64,000 nt of DNA from Gammaproteobacteria bacterium (GTDB lineage: Bacteria > Pseudomonadota > Gammaproteobacteria > Eutrophobiales > Eutrophobiaceae): NCBI GenBank assembly GCA_965116495.1, contig OZ220696.1:2080001-2144000 (forward strand). Direction: 5' to 3'. A program made the position numbers and the translations under genes. Every line of letters starts with the position of its first letter. Within the stretch, counting starts at the first letter, position 1. Shown here one piece after another: positions 1-32,751 of this stretch. Below the pieces are notes generated by a model that worked only from the letters and a program-made list of their open reading frames with translations, had not been told where the DNA came from and ran no database searches.

Positions 1-2793
1 GGAAAACCTTTTGCCTTGGGCAAGATTCTTCCTTCTCCTGGTTCGCAATTCATCGTTCAGGATCTTCTTCAGCAGTTCGAGGGCAAGGTTCTTGCGTTTC
101 ATGCCCTGGATTTCCTGCAGGAAGTCATCGGAAAGAATAGAGATATCCGGCTTCTTGATGCCGGCGGCCTCAAATATATCGAGCACGCCTTCCACGACGA
201 CCGCCTTGTCAACAATCTGCCGTATGGCGGTTTCCACCTCGTCCAGGCTTTTGCCGCTGCCTTGCTGTTCAAATTTTTTCAGGCGCGCCTTCACGGCCTG
301 GAAAAAACCCACCTCGGCCTTGATCGCCATGGCCCTGGGGTCCGGCACGGACAACGCAAACGCTTTTTCCAGCAGGCCGACCTCCCTGGTAAATCGCTCC
401 TTGCCGTTTTCCAGACCAAGAACGTGCTCCTCAGCTTCCAGGATAAGGCCCAGCTTTACCTGTGTGTCGGCAGAAAAATAGGTCTTGTAGGCAAAACGAT
501 CAAACATGGCCGCGACGACGGCGTGTTTTTCCAGCATTTTTTCCACTGCCTGCTCCTGCTCAAAAGCCGGCGCGCCCCTGCCATTGCTTTGGGTATAGGA
601 AACCAGGGCTTGTTTCAAATCTGAGGCAATACCGATATAGTCCACAACCCTGCCACCGGGCTTGTCCTTGTACACCCGGTTGACCCGGGCGATGGCCTGC
701 ATCAGGCTGTGCCCGCGCATGATTTTGTCAAGGTACATCGTTGTCAGGCAGGGTGCGTCAAACCCGGTCAGCCACATGTCCCGCACGATGACGATCTGCA
801 ATGGGTCGTCGGGGTCCTGAAAACGTTCCCGTAGCGTCTTGCGCTCCGTTTTGCTGGTACTGTGCCGTTGCCACGTCGCGGGGTCGCTTGAAGATGAGGT
901 CATGATCACCTTCACCTGTCCCTTGCTTTTATCTTCATCGTGCCAATCGGGACGCAAGCCAACTATTTCATCGTACATGGCCACCGCGATCCGGCGGCTG
1001 GTGGCAACGATCATGGCCTTGCCGGCAAACGCCTCCTGCCTGGCATCAAAATGCTTGAGGATATCCGTTACGACCGATTTCACTCGTTCCTCATGCCCTA
1101 TAATCGCTTCCTGCTTGCTCCATTTTACCTTTGCCTTCTCCGTTGCCGTTGCTTCTTCGCTTTCGGTGATACCCTCAACCTCGGCGTCCAGTTCCGCTTT
1201 TTCCTCTTCCTCCAAATGCACTTGCACCAACCGGGATTCGTAATACACCGGCACAGTCGCGCCATCTTCGACGGCTTGTTCTATGTCGTAAACGTCGACG
1301 TAATTGCCGAAGACCGCCGGGGTCGATGCATCTTCCTTTTCAATGGGCGTGCCGGTAAAACCGATGAAAGTCGCTTCGGGGAGGGCATCCCGCAGATACT
1401 TGGCAAAACCATAATTGGTTTTCGCACCGTCCTTGACAAAGTGGGTCCGGGCGCCGAAACCGTACTGGCTGCGGTGCGCTTCATCTGCGATGACAATGAT
1501 GTTGTGTCGGTTGGACAGCAGTTGGAAGTTTTCACTGCCGTCTTCAGGCAGGAACTTCTGGATGGTTGAGAAGACGATACCCCCTCCCGCGGTCTGCAAG
1601 AGTTGTTTCAACTGCGCACGGCTTTCCGCCTGTTTGGGAACCTGCCTGAGCAGTTCCTTCCCCGCGATAAAAGCATCGAATAACTGATCGTCAAGGTCAT
1701 TACGATCGGTAATGACAACGATAGTCGGATTGTTCATCTCCCGGTGTACGACCAGCAGGCCGGCGTAAAATACCATGGACAAGGATTTGCCACTACCCTG
1801 CGTGTGCCAGACTACCCCCGCCTTGCGGTCTCCCCTGGGTTGGCCTTTGACTCCGGGCAGGTTGTATACCCCGGGATCTTCCTCGACGTTCTCTCCGGAT
1901 GAGGCCCTGATAGTGGATTTAACCGCTTCCTTCACCGCGTGATACTGGTGGTATGCCGCTACTTTCTTGATAGTTTCAATACTTATCTGGCCGCTGGCCG
2001 GGTCTTCCTGTTTCACTTTCTCAAAGACGGAAAAGTGGCGAACCAGCTCCAGTAACACGTCCGGTCGCAGCATACCTTTGATCAGCGTCAACAGTTGCGG
2101 CGTCGTGTTGGGATCTTCCTTTTTCCCATCCACGGTCTTCCACGCCATGAACCGGCTCCAGCCGGCAGTCACGGAACCGGCTTTTGCATCCAGGCCGTCT
2201 GAGGCAACCAGCACACCGTTGTAGCAAAACAGGCTGGAGATTGTCTCTTTGTACGTTTGCAATTGGTCAAACGCTTTCCTCGGAGTCGCATTCTCATCGG
2301 CCGGGTTCTTCAATTCGATGACGACCATGGGCAGGCCGTTCACAAACAGGATAATATCCGGGCGTTTTGTCACGCCTGTTCCATGACCGGAAAGAGGTTT
2401 GTTTTCCGTTACGGTAAACTGGTTGCAGACTACGAAATCATTATTAAGCGGGGTCTCAAAATCAATCAAACGCACTTTGACCCCGATTGTTTCACCGTCT
2501 TTCTGCCGGTCTTCCGTTACACCTTCCCTCAGCATCTCATGGAACAGTTCGTTGCTTGCAACGGGATTCTGACCGGCGAGGGCGAGCGCCCGCCTGCGTG
2601 CCTGCTCTCTGATCTCATTCGGGATGGCCGGATTCAGTTTGTCAATCGCTGCTTGCAGACGTGTGCCCAGGACAACGTCGGAGAAGTCGTGTCTTTCAAA
2701 CTCCTGTGCTTCCGGGGACAGGTATAACCAACCCTGGCGCTCCAGGAGTTCCACGGCTAACTGTTCAACGTCGGACTCGTAGAGGGAGGTCAT
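1..2793 (-). CDS. hsdR: Type I restriction endonuclease subunit R (3' end runs off the window)
   Basis: Not in the ORF track because it has no stop in the window. Manual translation from ATG at 2793 gives MTSLYESDVEQLAVELL. In-frame motifs: nuclease RPDIILFVNGLPMVVIELKNP, Walker A WHTQGSGKS (~1809), DEAHR (~1485), FTGTP, DMWLTGFD (~780). Confidence 0.93.
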   Translation of the reverse strand, partial: MTSLYESDVEQLAVELLERQGWLYLSPEAQEFERHDFSDVVLGTRLQAAIDKLNPAIPNEIREQARRRALALAGQNPVASNELFHEMLREGVTEDRQKDGETIGVKVRLIDFETPLNNDFVVCNQFTVTENKPLSGHGTGVTKRPDIILFVNGLPMVVIELKNPADENATPRKAFDQLQTYKETISSLFCYNGVLVASDGLDAKAGSVTAGWSRFMAWKTVDGKKEDPNTTPQLLTLIKGMLRPDVLLELVRHFSVFEKVKQEDPASGQISIETIKKVAAYHQYHAVKEAVKSTIRASSGENVEEDPGVYNLPGVKGQPRGDRKAGVVWHTQGSGKSLSMVFYAGLLVVHREMNNPTIVVITDRNDLDDQLFDAFIAGKELLRQVPKQAESRAQLKQLLQTAGGGIVFSTIQKFLPEDGSENFQLLSNRHNIIVIADEAHRSQYGFGARTHFVKDGAKTNYGFAKYLRDALPEATFIGFTGTPIEKEDASTPAVFGNYVDVYDIEQAVEDGATVPVYYESRLVQVHLEEEEKAELDAEVEGITESEEATATEKAKVKWSKQEAIIGHEERVKSVVTDILKHFDARQEAFAGKAMIVATSRRIAVAMYDEIVGLRPDWHDEDKSKGQVKVIMTSSSSDPATWQRHSTSKTERKTLRERFQDPDDPLQIVIVRDMWLTGFDAPCLTTMYLDKIMRGHSLMQAIARVNRVYKDKPGGRVVDYIGIASDLKQALVSYTQSNGRGAPAFEQEQAVEKMLEKHAVVAAMFDRFAYKTYFSADTQVKLGLILEAEEHVLGLENGKERFTREVGLLEKAFALSVPDPRAMAIKAEVGFFQAVKARLKKFEQQGSGKSLDEVETAIRQIVDKAVVVEGVLDIFEAAGIKKPDISILSDDFLQEIQGMKRKNLALELLKKILNDELRTRRRKNLAQGKRFS

Positions 2794-2885: not shown

Positions 2886-4130
2886 TCACGAGGGTTTGGC
2901 CCAGAGAAATTGCAGCGGCAAAGCGTAGAGCTTGTCCCCGAAAGGCATAACCCTGTCGCCGGTGTACAGTAACACACCACCGGCAAACTTCTCACCCAAT
3001 GCTTCCTCGAGCTTGCGCAGCCCTTTGAAGTCGGAATTGACAACTGTGCCGGAAGCCTTCACTTCAACACCTGCCGCGGCGAGCGCGCTGCGTTGTATTA
3101 CAATATCCACTTCGACGCCATAGCGGTCGCGAAAGTGATGGAAAGTATGGCGCTGCTGATGCGCGCTGGCCTGCCGCTTCAGTTCCTGCAACACGAAGGT
3201 CTCGAGAATATGACCGAATAAAGGCCGATTCGCCGACAGCGATACCGCGTTCAGGTTCAACAACGCACAGATAATCCCCGTATCACAGAGATGTATCTTC
3301 GAGGTCTTTACCAGCCGTTTCAAGTGGTTATTATGCCAGGGTGGAATTCTTTCCAGCAAAAACATTTTTTCCAGGAGCGTGAGGTACTTCCCTATTGTCA
3401 ACCTGTTGAGTTGAAAGGAAGAGGCCAGACCATTCACGTTTAACAGTTGCGCGGTTTGCGCCGCCGCCAGTTGCAGCAACCGCGGCAGGGTTTCAAGAGA
3501 TTGAATTTCCATAATTATTGACGCATCGCGCTCAATCAGGGCTTCGATATAGGTCTGGTACCAGTTGGCTCGTCTGGTCGGGGTACGCTGCAAGGCAGCC
3601 GGGTAGCCTCCCGCCACCACGCGCCTGATCACCTGCTCGTCAAACGGCGGTTCCTCACGTATGAAGGAATCCGAGGCAAACAGGAAATCCAGAAATCGGG
3701 GCGCAGTCCGTTCAAGTTCATTCTGTGAGAAAGGATGCAATCTTACTATGTCCATACGACCGGCCAGCGATTCTTTTGTGCGGGTCATTTGCAACAGGTT
3801 CACCGAACCGGTCAGTATGAAACGGCCCGCGGTGCGGTCGTTATCAATGGCCAGTTTGATAGATGGAAACAGTCCGGGCACCAACTGCGCTTCATCCAGG
3901 ATCGTCCGGTCCGGCAAAGATTTTACAAAACCGAGCGGGTCTTCTGTGGCGTAACTGCGCGTGCCATCATCGTCAAAAGTCGAGTATTGGTAACCCTCGG
4001 ACTCCCCTATTGTCTGAGCAAGCGTCGTCTTGCCGCATTGGCGCGGTCCCTGTATCAGAACAGCAGGAGAATCAGCCAGCGCCTCCATCAGGCGCGGTTC
4101 AATATGACGTTGGTAATGATTGTTGTTCAT
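2886..4130 (-). CDS. AAA+ ATPase (AAA_14-type) with C-terminal DUF4143 / PD-(D/E)XK-like domain
   Basis: 414 aa. Walker A GPRQCGKTT, Walker B ILDEAQ, ILTGS, ESLAGR, GGYP, a central helix-turn-helix-like region, and C-terminal ETFV...EVDIV...GVEVKAS. Confidence 0.88.
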   Translation of the reverse strand: MNNNHYQRHIEPRLMEALADSPAVLIQGPRQCGKTTLAQTIGESEGYQYSTFDDDGTRSYATEDPLGFVKSLPDRTILDEAQLVPGLFPSIKLAIDNDRTAGRFILTGSVNLLQMTRTKESLAGRMDIVRLHPFSQNELERTAPRFLDFLFASDSFIREEPPFDEQVIRRVVAGGYPAALQRTPTRRANWYQTYIEALIERDASIIMEIQSLETLPRLLQLAAAQTAQLLNVNGLASSFQLNRLTIGKYLTLLEKMFLLERIPPWHNNHLKRLVKTSKIHLCDTGIICALLNLNAVSLSANRPLFGHILETFVLQELKRQASAHQQRHTFHHFRDRYGVEVDIVIQRSALAAAGVEVKASGTVVNSDFKGLRKLEEALGEKFAGGVLLYTGDRVMPFGDKLYALPLQFLWAKPS

Positions 4131-4156
4131 AGGGTAAAGTTATTAATCTGTTATGC

Positions 4157-4329
4157 GGCTGATTATCAGTCAACCCCATGGCTGATTGTTACTCTACCTC
4201 ACGGCTGATTGTTAGTAAACCCTATGGCTGATTGTTACTCTACCTGCGGCTAATTGTTACTGCACCCTACGGTTGATTGTCAGTTATAACTGCGACTGAT
4301 TGAAAACTTTACAGGAAAGCTGATTGTGG
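4157..4329. repeat. Tandem array of ~8 units of 22-24 bp, each a conserved GGCTGATTGT box plus a 12-14 nt variable part
   Basis: Unit starts at 4157, 4180, 4203, 4226, 4248, 4271, 4294 and 4318, read directly from the sequence. Confidence 0.92.
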
Positions 4330-4377
4330 CGGGTATTGTGATATAATGCCGCCTCTGTTTCAGGAAGCACCGGATCA

Positions 4378-4704
4378 ATGACTGACTTCTTCATTAACGA
4401 CGCGTGGGCCCAGGGCGCTGGGCAGGGGGGCGGTGGCTCTTTCCTGTTCATGATGGTCCTGTTTTTTGTCATATTTTATTTCTTTTTAATCCGGCCGCAG
4501 ATGAAGCAGGCCAAGGAACACAAGGCACTGGTCGGCGGTCTGGCCAAAGGGGATGAAGTCGTGACCAACGGCGGTGTGCTGGGAAAGATCAACCAGGTGG
4601 GGGATAATTTCATAGTACTGGAAATTGCGAAGGAGACGGAGATCAAAGTGCAGAAATCGGCCGTTTCCGCGGTACTGCCCAAGGGAACGCTGAAAACACT
4701 CTGA
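4378..4704 (+). CDS. yajC: Preprotein translocase subunit YajC
   Basis: FYFFLIRPQMKQAKEH...LAKGDEVVTNGG; directly upstream of secD. Confidence 0.96.
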   Translation: MTDFFINDAWAQGAGQGGGGSFLFMMVLFFVIFYFFLIRPQMKQAKEHKALVGGLAKGDEVVTNGGVLGKINQVGDNFIVLEIAKETEIKVQKSAVSAVLPKGTLKTL

Positions 4705-4752
4705 CCAGGCGTCTTGTTACAGTATTTCAACCGCCTGTGGACTGCCACTTCA

Positions 4753-4786
4753 AATTCCTAATTCCTAATTCTTAATTCCTAATTCC
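4753..4786. repeat. Heptamer tandem repeat (AATTCCT/AATTCTT) x5
   Basis: aattcct aattcct aattctt aattcct aattcc; same unit as 28360-28497. Confidence 0.85.
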
Positions 4787-9656: not shown

Positions 9657-9899
9657 ATGATACCTGTTACTTCACCCGAAAATCTGGGAAAAGTCCTTCG
9701 GCATTACAGAAAAAACCGGGGATTGACACAAGTTGAAGCAGGCGGCAAATTCAACCTGCCCCAGAAAACCGTTTCCACGATAGAGGCAGGAACTGCAGGT
9801 ATACGATTGGACACGGTATTTAAATACATGTCGGCGCTTGGCCTGGAAATGCATCTGGAACCCAGGAACAAACCGTCCGATGATGAGGCGCTCTGGTAA
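9657..9899 (+). CDS. hipB: HipB-like XRE helix-turn-helix antitoxin
   Basis: 80 aa, RKNRGLTQ...QKTVSTIE HTH; its stop overlaps the hipA start (TAATG). Confidence 0.85.
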   Translation: MIPVTSPENLGKVLRHYRKNRGLTQVEAGGKFNLPQKTVSTIEAGTAGIRLDTVFKYMSALGLEMHLEPRNKPSDDEALW

Positions 9900-11191
9900 T
9901 GGCGTCATCCCTGTTCATTTACATGAACGGCCATGAAGTTGGCGAATATATCCAGCGGAGCGGTGGTGTTCACGAACTTGTTTACAACGATTCATGGCTC
10001 GAACTCAGGGGGGCGCTTCCACTCTCCCTTTCTTTACCGCTTACGGACAAGCGACATAAGGGCGACGTGGTATACAACTATTTCGACAATATGTTGCCCG
10101 ATAGCATGGAAATTCGAAATAGAATCCAGGCCAGGTTCGGCGTCAAAACCAACCAGCCTTTCGATTTGCTCTCATGCATCGGTAAGGACTGCGTCGGCGC
10201 CATCCAACTCACAAACGGACGAACACAGATTGATGTAAAGAGAATTGAAGGCATACCTCTGAACGAAAAAGAGATCGCAGAAGAACTCAGAAACTACAAA
10301 GCGCTGCCGTTAGGCATGTCAAAAGACAGGGAATTCAGGATCTCCATTGCCGGTGTCCAGGAAAAAACCGCATTGCTCATGCACAAAGGACAATGGCAAC
10401 GTCCTGTGGGCGCAACGCCTACTACACACATCCTGAAATTACCGATTGGGAGAATTGACCATGCAGGTATCGACCTGTCGGGCAGTACTGAAAATGAGTG
10501 GATATGCCTCGAGATATTAAGGAGCTTCGGCCTGCCTGTTGCTGCCGCTCGTGTTGAGAAGTTCGAAGACATCAAAACGCTTGTGGTGGAGCGTTTTGAT
10601 CGGAAGGTTGCCGATAACAAATCCTGGATCATCCGCCTTCCGATAGAAGACATGTGCCAGGCAAACGGGATTGCGCCTGCCTTGAAATATGAAAATGAAG
10701 GCGGTCCCGGTATTACAAAAATCATGGAGCTACTCAGGTCTTCACTTTATGCGGAAGAAGACCGGTTCCGGTTCATGCAATCCGTCTTCCTGTACTGGTT
10801 GCTTGGCGCTATTGACGGCCATGCAAAAAACTTCAGTATTTTCCTGTACCAGGGCGGACGCTTTGAGCTGACTCCTTTCTACGACGTCATCTCGGCATAC
10901 CCACTCGCTGAGAAGCGCCAGGTTGAATACAGGGACTTGAAAATGGCGTTGGCCCTGCGCAGCAAAAATGTACATTATGCGTGGCATGAAATCATGCCGC
11001 GGCACTGGTTCAGTCATTCGGCAAAAGTCGATTTCCCCAAGGTACAGATGCAACAAATCATAGAGGATATCGCGGACAGGCTGGATTCAGTAATCGACAC
11101 GGCGGCAGCAAACATTCCCGCGGATTTTCCGGCCGGGGTAGCCGAACCGATTTTTGCCGGCATGAGAAGGTGTATGGAACGAATCACCTGA
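9899..11191 (+). CDS. hipA: HipA family serine/threonine kinase toxin
   Basis: PLSLSLP, IGKDCVGA, ISIAGVQEK, PTTHILKLPIG, LVVERFDR, DGHAKNFS, LTPFYDVISA. Confidence 0.93.
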   Translation: MASSLFIYMNGHEVGEYIQRSGGVHELVYNDSWLELRGALPLSLSLPLTDKRHKGDVVYNYFDNMLPDSMEIRNRIQARFGVKTNQPFDLLSCIGKDCVGAIQLTNGRTQIDVKRIEGIPLNEKEIAEELRNYKALPLGMSKDREFRISIAGVQEKTALLMHKGQWQRPVGATPTTHILKLPIGRIDHAGIDLSGSTENEWICLEILRSFGLPVAAARVEKFEDIKTLVVERFDRKVADNKSWIIRLPIEDMCQANGIAPALKYENEGGPGITKIMELLRSSLYAEEDRFRFMQSVFLYWLLGAIDGHAKNFSIFLYQGGRFELTPFYDVISAYPLAEKRQVEYRDLKMALALRSKNVHYAWHEIMPRHWFSHSAKVDFPKVQMQQIIEDIADRLDSVIDTAAANIPADFPAGVAEPIFAGMRRCMERIT

Positions 11192-24912: not shown

Positions 24913-25046
24913 CCACTCCCACGAAAGTGGGAGTCCAGTCAAATACTGTGTCGCCTGAAAGGCGACTCTTTGTCTACTGGATTCCCGTTTTCACGGGAAT
25001 GGCGCCGGAAGCGGTATTGACGGGGACAGATTTAAATCTGTCCCCG
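24913..25046. repeat. Cluster of palindromic repeats (two ATTCCC/ACTCCC-N8-GGGA units, a GTCGCCT hairpin and a GGGGACAGA palindrome)
   Basis: 24913-24938, 24937-24971, 24977-25004 and 25021-25046. Confidence 0.8.
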
Positions 25047-25086
25047 TTTACGCGATACTGATGCTGTCCCCGATTTAGCGACATAG

Positions 25087-25962
25087 ATGAATACACTCCA
25101 GCAAATCCCCCTCCCCCTTTTTTATACCGTCAGCGCCTTGCTGGGCCTGCTTGTCGGGAGTTTCCTGAACGTGGTGATCCGGCGCCTGCCACGCATGATA
25201 GAAGCGGCCTGGCGGATGGAATGCCGCGAATTTGCCGGTATATCATCTGCTGAGGAACCGGGTCCGGAGCCGTATAACCTACTCAGACCCGGCTCCAAGT
25301 GCCCGCGATGCGGCCACAGGATCAGCGCATTGGAGAATATTCCACTACTGGGCTACCTCCTGCTCGGAGGGAGATGCGCCGGCTGCAATGGCACGATTTC
25401 GTTACGGTATCCTCTTGTCGAAACCCTGACTGCGGGCATGACGCTGTTTGTGGCAGTGAAATTCGGCGCCAGTGCCCAGACACTGTTTGCCTGTTTATTC
25501 ACCTGGGCGCTTATCTCGTTGACTTTCATCGATATTGACCGTCAACTGCTGCCCGACACAATCACCCTTCCTTTTCTATGGCTTGGTCTGCTCTGCAACT
25601 ATTTCGGTTTATTCACGGACTTGTACTCCAGCGTGATGGGCGCCGCGGCAGGTTACGGCATTTTCTGGCTTACCTACCAGATTTTCAAACTTGTTACCGG
25701 GAAGGAAGGCCTGGGGTTGGGAGATCTGAAGCTGCTTGCCATGCTGGGGGCATGGGCGGGATGGCAGGCATTGGCCTCGATAATTTTTCTCTCCTCCCTG
25801 CTCGGTTCCCTGGTCGGACTCTACCTGGTTTTATTTCGCCGCCGGCAAAGATCCGCGCCGATCCCTTTCGGGCCTTACCTGGCTGTGGCAGGATGGCTGA
25901 ACCTGGTGTGGGGATTGAACCTGTTTGATTATCTGTACCGGCAGGGAGAGCATGTGTTGTGA
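25087..25962 (+). CDS. pilD: Prepilin peptidase / N-methyltransferase PilD
   Basis: GSFLNVVIRRLP, CPRC...CAGC zinc motif, FIDID..LLPD, GLGDLKL, PFGPYL. Confidence 0.93.
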   Translation: MNTLQQIPLPLFYTVSALLGLLVGSFLNVVIRRLPRMIEAAWRMECREFAGISSAEEPGPEPYNLLRPGSKCPRCGHRISALENIPLLGYLLLGGRCAGCNGTISLRYPLVETLTAGMTLFVAVKFGASAQTLFACLFTWALISLTFIDIDRQLLPDTITLPFLWLGLLCNYFGLFTDLYSSVMGAAAGYGIFWLTYQIFKLVTGKEGLGLGDLKLLAMLGAWAGWQALASIIFLSSLLGSLVGLYLVLFRRRQRSAPIPFGPYLAVAGWLNLVWGLNLFDYLYRQGEHVL

Positions 25963-28359: not shown

Positions 28360-28497
28360 AATTACGAATTAGGAATTACGAATTAGGAATTAGGAATGAA
28401 TGTGCTGCGTGGGGCGGCAGTTTTTCGCACGCAAAAATAAACCGTACATCGACATAACGCCCCCCAATTCGTAATTCTTAATTCCTAATTCTTAATT
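28360..28497. repeat. Inverted heptamer tandem arrays (AATTAGG/AATTACG versus AATTCCT/AATTCTT) flanking ~70 bp
   Basis: 28360-28397 and 28466-28497. Confidence 0.85.
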
Positions 28498-32519: not shown

Positions 32520-32554
32520 GTGGAAAATCCCATTAATACGCCCCGGTGTATGCG

Positions 32555-32706
32555 GTGTATGGGGTCAGGTCGCACAATGCACACGTCCGGGAATGCGTGT
32601 ATGGGGTCAGGTCGCACAATGCACACGTCCGGGAATGTGACCCCATACGGGTTGTGTGTGCATTGTGCGACCTGACCCCATACACGCACGTGACCCCATA
32701 CACGCA
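32555..32706. repeat. REP-like cluster GGGGTCAGGTCGCACAATGCACAC (two direct copies at 42-bp spacing, one inverted copy, fragments)
   Basis: Direct copies at 32555 and 32597; inverted copy at ~32654-32685; extra TGACCCCATAC at 32638 and 32691. Confidence 0.85.
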
Positions 32707-32751
32707 CAAGCGTGGGCTGATTAAAACAGAACGGGTTGAAAAAATAAAGGA

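Follow-up and report, generated by a model that had tools for sequence, protein, structure and literature searches.

The array and its neighbors at the yajC site

The window analyzed here is a 64,000-nucleotide stretch of contig OZ220696.1 (assembly GCA_965116495.1, positions 2,080,001 to 2,144,000) from a Gammaproteobacteria bacterium, and the element under study is a tandem repeat array lying ahead of a gene for a 414-residue ATPase–nuclease (Table 1). The array consists of eight boxes of 10 nt each, reading GGCTGATTGT on the plus strand and ACAATCAGCC in the gene sense, which start at 4157, 4180, 4203, 4226, 4248, 4271, 4294 and 4318 with successive steps of 23, 23, 23, 22, 23, 23 and 24 bp; the gap between the proximal box and the ATG (4130) is 26 nt. 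The direct neighbors of the gene and array are hsdR, which has the same orientation, begins 92 nt past the ATPase gene and is likely co-transcribed with it, and yajC, which belongs to the divergent yajC-secD-secF genes upstream.

Tandem Repeats Finder (TRF) described the array with a period of 23 (3.8 copies, score 106) and a period of 46 (2.8 copies, score 164). Boxes with at most one mismatch occurred 14 times in the window, seven of them in the array, compared with a mean of 5.0 and a largest count of 12 in shuffled sequences. An initial annotation, made from the sequence alone, had described eight units with a period of about 23 bp that end 26 nt before the ATG, degenerate distally and precede a gene co-oriented upstream of hsdR, and the coordinates and TRF bear this out, including the degeneration of the two distal boxes; the six intervening segments that it listed were exact. 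Its treatment of these segments as free variable spacers proved wrong. The segments resemble one another in a 46-bp alternation detected by TRF, and five of them are 75–83% identical to ortholog segments, which indicates that they were inherited and not acquired.

The array is not an assembly artifact, because short-read contigs from public sequencing runs match it letter for letter. Contigs of runs X1 and X3 cover 3802–4782 and a contig of run X5, from a second study, covers 4144–4488, with zero letter differences, although X1 and X3 may themselves be the source of the window sequence. The X1 and X3 samples also contain another allele, which differs by about 10% across the ATPase gene (2958–3770) and has a shorter junction between the gene and hsdR. 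A dimer-on-palindrome model was dropped, since the imperfect palindrome GRCTRA-CAA-TYAGYC in the window's unit is absent from the clade consensus.

Table 1. Coordinates of the features discussed (window positions; −, minus strand)
Feature	Position	Strand	Remarks
hsdR of a type I restriction–modification operon	1..2793	−	leaves the window; hsdM-like and further genes leftward
ATPase–nuclease gene (AAA_14 + DUF4143; PDC-S01)	2886..4130	−	414 residues
PD-(D/E)xK-type nuclease domain, about residues 300–414	2889..3233	−	E310, D342, E356, K358
Predicted winged helix, residues 214–262	3345..3491	−	helices 214–224, 232–237 and 243–255, then strands
P-loop ATPase domain, residues 21–139	3714..4070	−	Walker A G28/G33/K34, Walker B D79/E80, T107, putative arginine finger R125
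Array of eight boxes, 22–24-bp steps	4157..4327	−	gene sense ACAATCAGCC; predicted operators interleaved with promoter hexamers
Cores within the array boxes			CAATCAGCC; distinct from the predicted −35/−10 hexamers
Extra −35-type TTGACT (5/6)	4168..4173	−	ahead of the last box
Predicted −10 TAGAGT (4/6)	4191..4196	−	17 bp after TTTACT, spacer filled by one box
Predicted −35 TTTACT (4/6)	4214..4219	−	TTGACT in the same register of the closest homologs
Upstream −10-type TAGAGT	4237..4242	−	second copy of the 46-bp dimer
Divergent yajC promoter, TATAAT	4342..4347	+	

Most close homologs carry arrays of the same period

Of 116 homologous loci, 17 were dropped and 99 kept, the latter having a complete 5′ end and 150 nt or more of upstream sequence. 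Among the 77 loci at 42% identity or more, which include the window locus, one paralog and four near-duplicates, 67 showed an upstream periodicity of 21–25 bp (p ≤ 0.01 each), and the best lag was 22 or 23 in 73. A periodicity score of at least 0.6 was reached upstream in 54 and downstream in one of the 85 loci with both flanks. When boxes were chained with steps of 22–24 bp only, at least three copies of one box family were present in 70 of 75 non-redundant loci. The clade box consensus is TT[A/G/T]CAATYRGMCG, joined to a poorly conserved linker of about 10 nt; the information per column is 0.3–1.8 bits in the 13-nt box and 0.02–0.5 bits in the linker. The box follows the protein tree across phyla, and the copy number ranges from 3 to 12 per array with evident 23- and 46-bp duplications. 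Very long arrays were seen at L128 (genome G310, 12 or more units), L122 and L120, with differing boxes in congeneric paralogs, pointing to rapid expansion.

We then scanned the 4.34-Mb genome with a clade matrix trained without the loci of this genome. Phased box triples were found at only two places, the window array and a site before a paralog, both ahead of DUF4143 genes, and none appeared in three shuffled genomes. Single box matches were not enriched (2508 and 2522 per strand, versus 2699–2787 in the shuffles), which argues against a host regulon. A dispersed genomic repeat was thereby ruled out by the phased triples together with the genome search, and the proposals of the initial annotation that homologs would carry 22–24-bp arrays and that the repeat would not be scattered independently of the gene both held. 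A tblastn search with the 414-residue protein gave 22 matches in this genome; a 23–24-bp array built on a unit of its own lies directly upstream of five of them, the window locus included, and long palindromes take the array position in eight, a descriptive count made with no null. Paralogs upstream of 3337174, 3359341, 3023717, 2491126 and other positions have their own 23–24-bp arrays, while other paralogs show long palindromes or 32–33-bp periods over predicted promoters. Outside chromosomes, homologs were found at three loci on viral contigs and in 157 plasmid records, the latter all below 60% identity.

The repeat period matches the spacing of a promoter

A −35 hexamer (6 bp) and a 17-bp spacer add up to 23 bp, the period of the array. 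Forty of the 70 arrays are start-proximal, with −1 to 4 nt between the end of the last box and the start codon, and in these the third base of the box varies with rank: T in the third-last box (21/40), G in the penultimate (29/40) and A in the last (35/40). The typical words are TTGCAA in the penultimate box and, one base in, TACAAT or TACGAT in the last. TAnnnT was found in the last box of 30 arrays and the penultimate box of none, and TTG began the penultimate box in 28 and the last box in none. The order TTG-then-TA occurred in 27 of the 40, whereas 20,000 shuffles of box order within arrays averaged 4.3 and never exceeded 13. All 30 −10-like hexamers lay 5–9 nt ahead of the start codon, and the spacer between hexamers was 18 bp (24 cases) or 17 bp (3 cases) in all 27 pairs. 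Across the full set of arrays, TAnnnT stood 5–9 nt before the start in 39 of 70, whereas control anchors averaged 4.8 and peaked at 20. A Shine–Dalgarno (SD)-like 4-mer was present in 5 of the 40 start-proximal arrays. These patterns lead us to predict that the start-proximal homolog arrays are leaderless promoters, in which case the array lies outside the transcript; the predicted start coincides with the ATG in 30 of the 40, and the array would thus be untranscribed there.

In the six-member clade that holds the window the register is shifted: the box begins with TAAC, and the hexamers lie within the linker, that is, in what the initial annotation called variable segments. TTGACT is followed 23 bp on by TACAGT, TACACT, TACAAT or TATATT in L117 (89% identity), L118 and L119 (84%) and L001 (74%), so that TTGACT-17-TAnnnT occurs in four of the five closest homologs, and L119 has two complete promoters in tandem. 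The linker hexamers of the window read, in order, ATAACT, TGCAGT, TAGAGT, TTTACT, TAGAGT and TTGACT. With the pair assigned in Table 1, transcription is predicted to start near 4184. We read the 46-bp period as a duplicated −35/−10 dimer, and the additional TTGACT is possibly a second promoter or a product of the 46-bp duplication.

Orphan arrays at the same insertion site

The yajC region was matched in 22 of 23 genomes of the genus, and the gap before yajC varies in content between them, with hsdM in G318. Congeners G320 (L141) and G308 (L152/L157) carry this array at the same yajC site with no ATPase gene, the array running straight into hsdR and having TATAAT or TAGAAT in the −10 register. 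Neither genome has an ATPase homolog at E ≤ 1e-90, and G320 keeps a remnant of the deleted gene (local score 48, versus a largest score of 31 in 500 shuffles). The retention of the array before hsdR in both genomes fits an array that serves as the operon promoter.

Host-conserved DNA begins at about 4336, so the array ends at the border of a variable insertion site. The gap between an fdh-like gene and yajC (4330 leftward; L136–L159) appears as an insertion hotspot, filled by type I restriction–modification (RM) genes here and in G318, G320 and G308 and by other small modules or nothing in other congeners. The distal-most box, in the region 4318–4347, lies about at the −35 region of the divergent yajC promoter, and its occupancy could affect yajC-secDF expression.

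The encoded protein combines ATPase, predicted winged helix and nuclease

Only two Pfam families match the 414-residue protein, AAA_14 (PF13173, E = 7e-25, residues 21–139) and DUF4143 (PF13635, E = 6.3e-43, residues 200–360), and neither is a Nop family. The PADLOC model of PDC-S01 (PDLC04790) matches residues 1–412 with E = 8.9e-159, and NCBIfam returned no family for the protein. By these sequence matches it is the catalogued candidate PDC-S01/COG1373 and not, as first annotated, an undescribed protein. The Walker A and B motifs and the C-terminal E340-V-D342...E356-V-K358 motif noted in the initial annotation are present, and key residues in them are conserved among 75 aligned homologs. 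The ATPase residues of Table 1 are present in all 75, with K34, D79, E80 and R125 invariant; the nuclease residues are nearly so (E310 and K358 in 74, D342 and E356 in 75), and within the predicted helix R243 is kept in 70, T245 in 74 and Y249 in 74. The joint conservation of K34, D79, E80, R125, D342, E356, K358, E310, R243, T245 and Y249 argues that the ATPase, the nuclease and the helix are all seemingly under selection.

An AlphaFold2 model (predicted local distance difference test score, pLDDT, 90.1) comprises the ATPase domain, a unit at residues 214–262 and a C-terminal alpha/beta domain. The three-helix-plus-strands unit at 214–262 is predicted to be a winged helix, in agreement with the winged helix-turn-helix (HTH) proposed earlier, a call made from the model topology and from fold matches that span residues 1–292 of the larger protein. 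The best matches were Paby2304 (Z 16.1, root-mean-square deviation [rmsd] 4.6, 253 residues aligned) and SSO1545 (Z 15.1), followed by NLR/STAND proteins, RFC and Orc1/Cdc6. The Orc1/Cdc6–DNA complex 2qby gave Z 10.3 with rmsd 8.2 over 244 aligned residues, and other folds match better.

A promoter–operator model and the points against it

From the sequence evidence we consider it probable that the array is both the promoter and the self-operator of the ATPase–nuclease gene, and that the encoded protein would bind the boxes through its predicted winged helix. We propose that a sigma-70 promoter has been assembled from tandem operator boxes, through which the gene would repress itself together with the hsdR operon that follows. 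Given that 6 and 17 make 23, boxes would lie upstream of the −35 hexamer, within the spacer and across the start, one at each place. Each asymmetric box would take one protomer through its winged helix, neighboring protomers would join head to tail in an ATP-linked manner via their ATPase domains and the invariant R125, and the short protein filament so formed on the array would exclude RNA polymerase. A potentially toxic nuclease would in this way be held at a low and fixed level, with a burst on entering a naive cell, like C-protein circuits, and extra units would arise by slippage of 23- and 46-bp blocks. In the weakest step of the model, the nuclease would most likely be released or activated against foreign or unprotected DNA. 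The suggestion in the initial annotation that the array is a phased autoregulation or loading site for an oligomeric ATPase fits this reading, and what it overlooked was the −35/−10 period and that the array is itself the predicted promoter.

Several observations weigh against this model. Thirty of the 70 arrays end elsewhere than at the start codon, the start codons were chosen by script, and the loci are kin, so the count from the order permutation exaggerates the independent support. Below 42% identity the period was found in only 4 of 22 loci, which shows that the array is not a property of the whole family. In the window itself the best pair, TTTACT-17-TAGAGT, scores 8 of 12 and was not called by a 9-of-12 consensus scan, and the predicted 54-nt leader would hold boxes and no SD sequence; in L002 (73%), TTGACT is followed by CACACT, and a promoter is not placeable. 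The persistence of the box without a homolog in G320 and G308 needs either recent loss or another binder. As for the neighborhood, of 54 loci in which a downstream open reading frame (ORF) was scored, hsdR is the next gene in only 9, five of these in the sublineage of the window, so the link to RM is strong locally but not family-wide; the other downstream neighbors include methylases and toxin–antitoxin (TA) genes, and 27 of the 54 have no Pfam match. Finally, of 9,522 residue–base covariation scores, the two highest link the second box base to residues 244 and 242, where the predicted recognition helix begins, but they reflect about three clade-level switches on a quick tree and are weak. 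The covariation of the box with the HTH that the initial annotation put forward is therefore seen in the top scores but only as clade-level changes, and it is suggestive only as a sign of recognition.

The same 9 of 54 rules out an obligatory RM partnership, and a one-residue recognition code was rejected, as the top scores at 244 and 242 are clade-level only.

Alternative explanations

It is also conceivable, though distinctly unlikely, that the array is the loading origin of a selfish cassette: the ATPase would assemble on its own boxes, in the way that Orc1/Cdc6 assembles at origins, and the nuclease would help the array and gene to be copied or inserted as one unit, in many cases at the hsdR 5′ end. 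The unit would then take over hsdR expression, with autoregulation as a secondary effect. A direct repeat from flank to flank scored at least 57 in 14 of 88 loci with both flanks (most scored 10–39), diverged and about 45–250 bp long; the other 74, the window locus included, had no such repeat, and several of the flanking repeats were unrelated dispersed elements. In L001, L099 and L121, and probably in L079, it corresponds to the hsdR 5′ end, present as a stub before the array (weaker at L002), but such stubs can arise through ordinary recombination-driven insertion or tandem duplication. Mobility would agree with the closest homologs occupying different chromosomal sites (after a cysG-like gene versus before yajC) and another phylum, with the 22 tblastn matches within one genome, and with a review that links prokaryotic proteins combining NTPase and restriction endonuclease domains with transposable elements (PMC5289972). 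However, neither terminal inverted repeats nor a fixed target site were seen.

Two further observations concern the cassette borders. Decayed copies of the hsdR 5′ end lie 60–330 nt upstream of the ATPase gene at L001, L002, L099, L121 and L079, bracketing the cassette with hsdR starts. At L010, L101, L115, L123, L016 and L032, direct repeats of 100–180 bp flank the cassette, and the downstream copy at L010 ends in another array box.

A broader conjecture, which we put forward tentatively and hold to be unlikely, is that PDC-S01 genes, rather than being simple defense genes, are self-addressed selfish cassettes whose private 23-bp-phased array is promoter, operator and polymerization origin at once; they would insert at the 5′ ends of restriction genes leaving a stub, capture the type I restriction operon and perhaps decay to leave the array as the operon promoter.

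Alternatively, the encoded protein might make no contact with the array, which would then be a promoter multiplied by slippage or the operator of a host regulator; we regard this as highly improbable. The spread of copy number between 3 and 12, the evident duplications of 23 and 46 bp, the orphan arrays that outlast the gene and the covariation confounded by descent are all compatible with it. On the other hand, CAATYRGMCG, which is a non-promoter core, is kept across distant hosts and phyla while the linkers diverge, boxes are paralog-specific within one genome, and the box is unenriched elsewhere in the genome.

The remaining proposal, that processing of an array transcript yields short RNAs guiding or neutralizing the ATPase–nuclease in the manner of a type III antitoxin or TIGR, is scarcely credible in view of negative fold, Rfam, terminator and linker tests, even though the box-plus-variable-segment layout stands directly 5′ of an effector gene, the predicted transcript at the window locus would take in one to two boxes and a promoter may exist further upstream. 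The window array folds no better than shuffled sequences (z −0.40), and 69 arrays averaged z −0.69 in sense and −0.44 in antisense, with nine and four below −2. There was no Rfam match at E ≤ 1 and no terminator-like site between the array and the gene. Only about five linker columns are free, linker similarity is higher within arrays (0.46) than between them (0.32), identity to ortholog linkers is 75–83%, the same array was recovered in the contig of another study, and the start predicted at the ATG in most start-proximal arrays would leave those arrays unread. The small-RNA component suggested in the initial annotation thus finds no structure, no Rfam match and no acquired segments, and most homologs have the array upstream of the predicted start.

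Comparison with known systems

DUF4143/COG1373 was listed as a PD-(D/E)XK family with no function assigned (PMC3424549). PDC-S01 is one of 145 untested candidates from a 'guilt-by-embedding' approach (10.1101/2024.01.29.577857); it has been ranked the fourth commonest defense across prokaryotes (PMC12988326) and is abundant in the rumen too (PMC13356809). One member, expressed as coding sequence only from pQE82L in E. coli B and challenged with T4, T5 and T7, is absent from the four protective systems named in that study (10.1101/2024.09.26.614923). The defense role of PDC-S01 is accordingly that of a candidate. The window locus shares the protein family and, as for the guilt-by-embedding candidates, adjoining type I RM genes; it differs in that PDC-S01 is defined as a single gene, with no cis array or promoter mentioned in the portions of those sources available.

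We found no account of an array with PDC-S01, DUF4143 or COG1373 in the literature searched, which left subscription journals and bioRxiv supplements uncovered. What the locus adds is the rank-specific −35/−10 test, the register shift and the natural deletions. With a private DNA site, assays of PDC-S01 for binding, ATPase and nuclease activity would for the first time have a concrete substrate, and the promoter–operator model predicts leaderless, self-repressed expression; a self-repressing array would also suggest why a phenotype may go unseen when the coding sequence alone is tested from an inducible plasmid. A repeat whose period would be set by the geometry of RNA polymerase, with the −35 element in one copy and the −10 in the next, is a testable promoter architecture, and this reading would explain away a class of guide-like arrays.

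The nearest analogy in function is with C-protein circuits, in which self-binding sites at fixed spacing precede a leaderless gene co-transcribed with a restriction gene (PMC2632904). The array system would work like a C-protein circuit but is not a member of that group. C proteins are small HTH dimers on two palindromic operators, whereas the predicted binder here is a 414-residue ATPase–winged-helix–nuclease on three to 12 asymmetric direct repeats, with the −35 and −10 elements inside the repeat.

Archaeal Orc1/Cdc6 proteins bind origin recognition boxes, and plasmid Rep proteins bind iterons. The locus would resemble these in a predicted ATPase-plus-winged-helix fold (2v1u and 2qby are among the Foldseek/VIA matches) and in phased direct repeats of about two helical turns beside the gene; it differs from Orc1/Cdc6 in a fold match weaker than those of SSO1545 and Paby2304, in the C-terminal nuclease and in lying on a chromosomal island. 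SSO1545 (2FNA) and Paby2304 (2QEN), archaeal ATPases of the STAND class (MNS clade) that carry winged-helix and nuclease-like domains, are the best structural matches (Z 15–16) over residues 1–292 but share only 17–20% identity.

With type III TA, TIGR-Tas and CRISPR the locus shares a tandem array directly beside an effector gene, but it has a shorter period and lacks structured or unique guide segments as well as a matching Rfam or Pfam family. CRISPR arrays hold unique acquired spacers of about 26–72 nt between repeats, whereas the segments here are 12–13 nt, mutually related and common to orthologs; that the units are too short for CRISPR had been stated in the initial annotation and is confirmed. 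As to linked cas genes, the immediate neighbors of the array and its gene are hsdR and yajC. Type III TA systems consist of structured RNA repeats of about 34–57 nt, a terminator and a ToxN/TenpN/CptN RNase, in contrast to a 23-bp period that lacks stable folding, Rfam match and terminator-like site and is paired with an AAA_14 + DUF4143 protein. TIGR-Tas arrays have dual-spacer units of about 36 nt, box C/D motifs and a Nop-domain protein; here the period is 23 and the protein has no Nop family.

Other features of the window

An HTH_3 and HipA-like gene pair, a hipBA-type module, lies at 9657–11191. Runs of AATTCCT-type heptamers stand between genes at 4753–4786 (the yajC/secD gap), 28360–28397 and 28466–28497, and dozens of copies occur in several congeneric genomes. 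Tandem duplications of 42, 18 and 26 bp were found at 32550–32637, 32673–32707 and 25038–25089, respectively.

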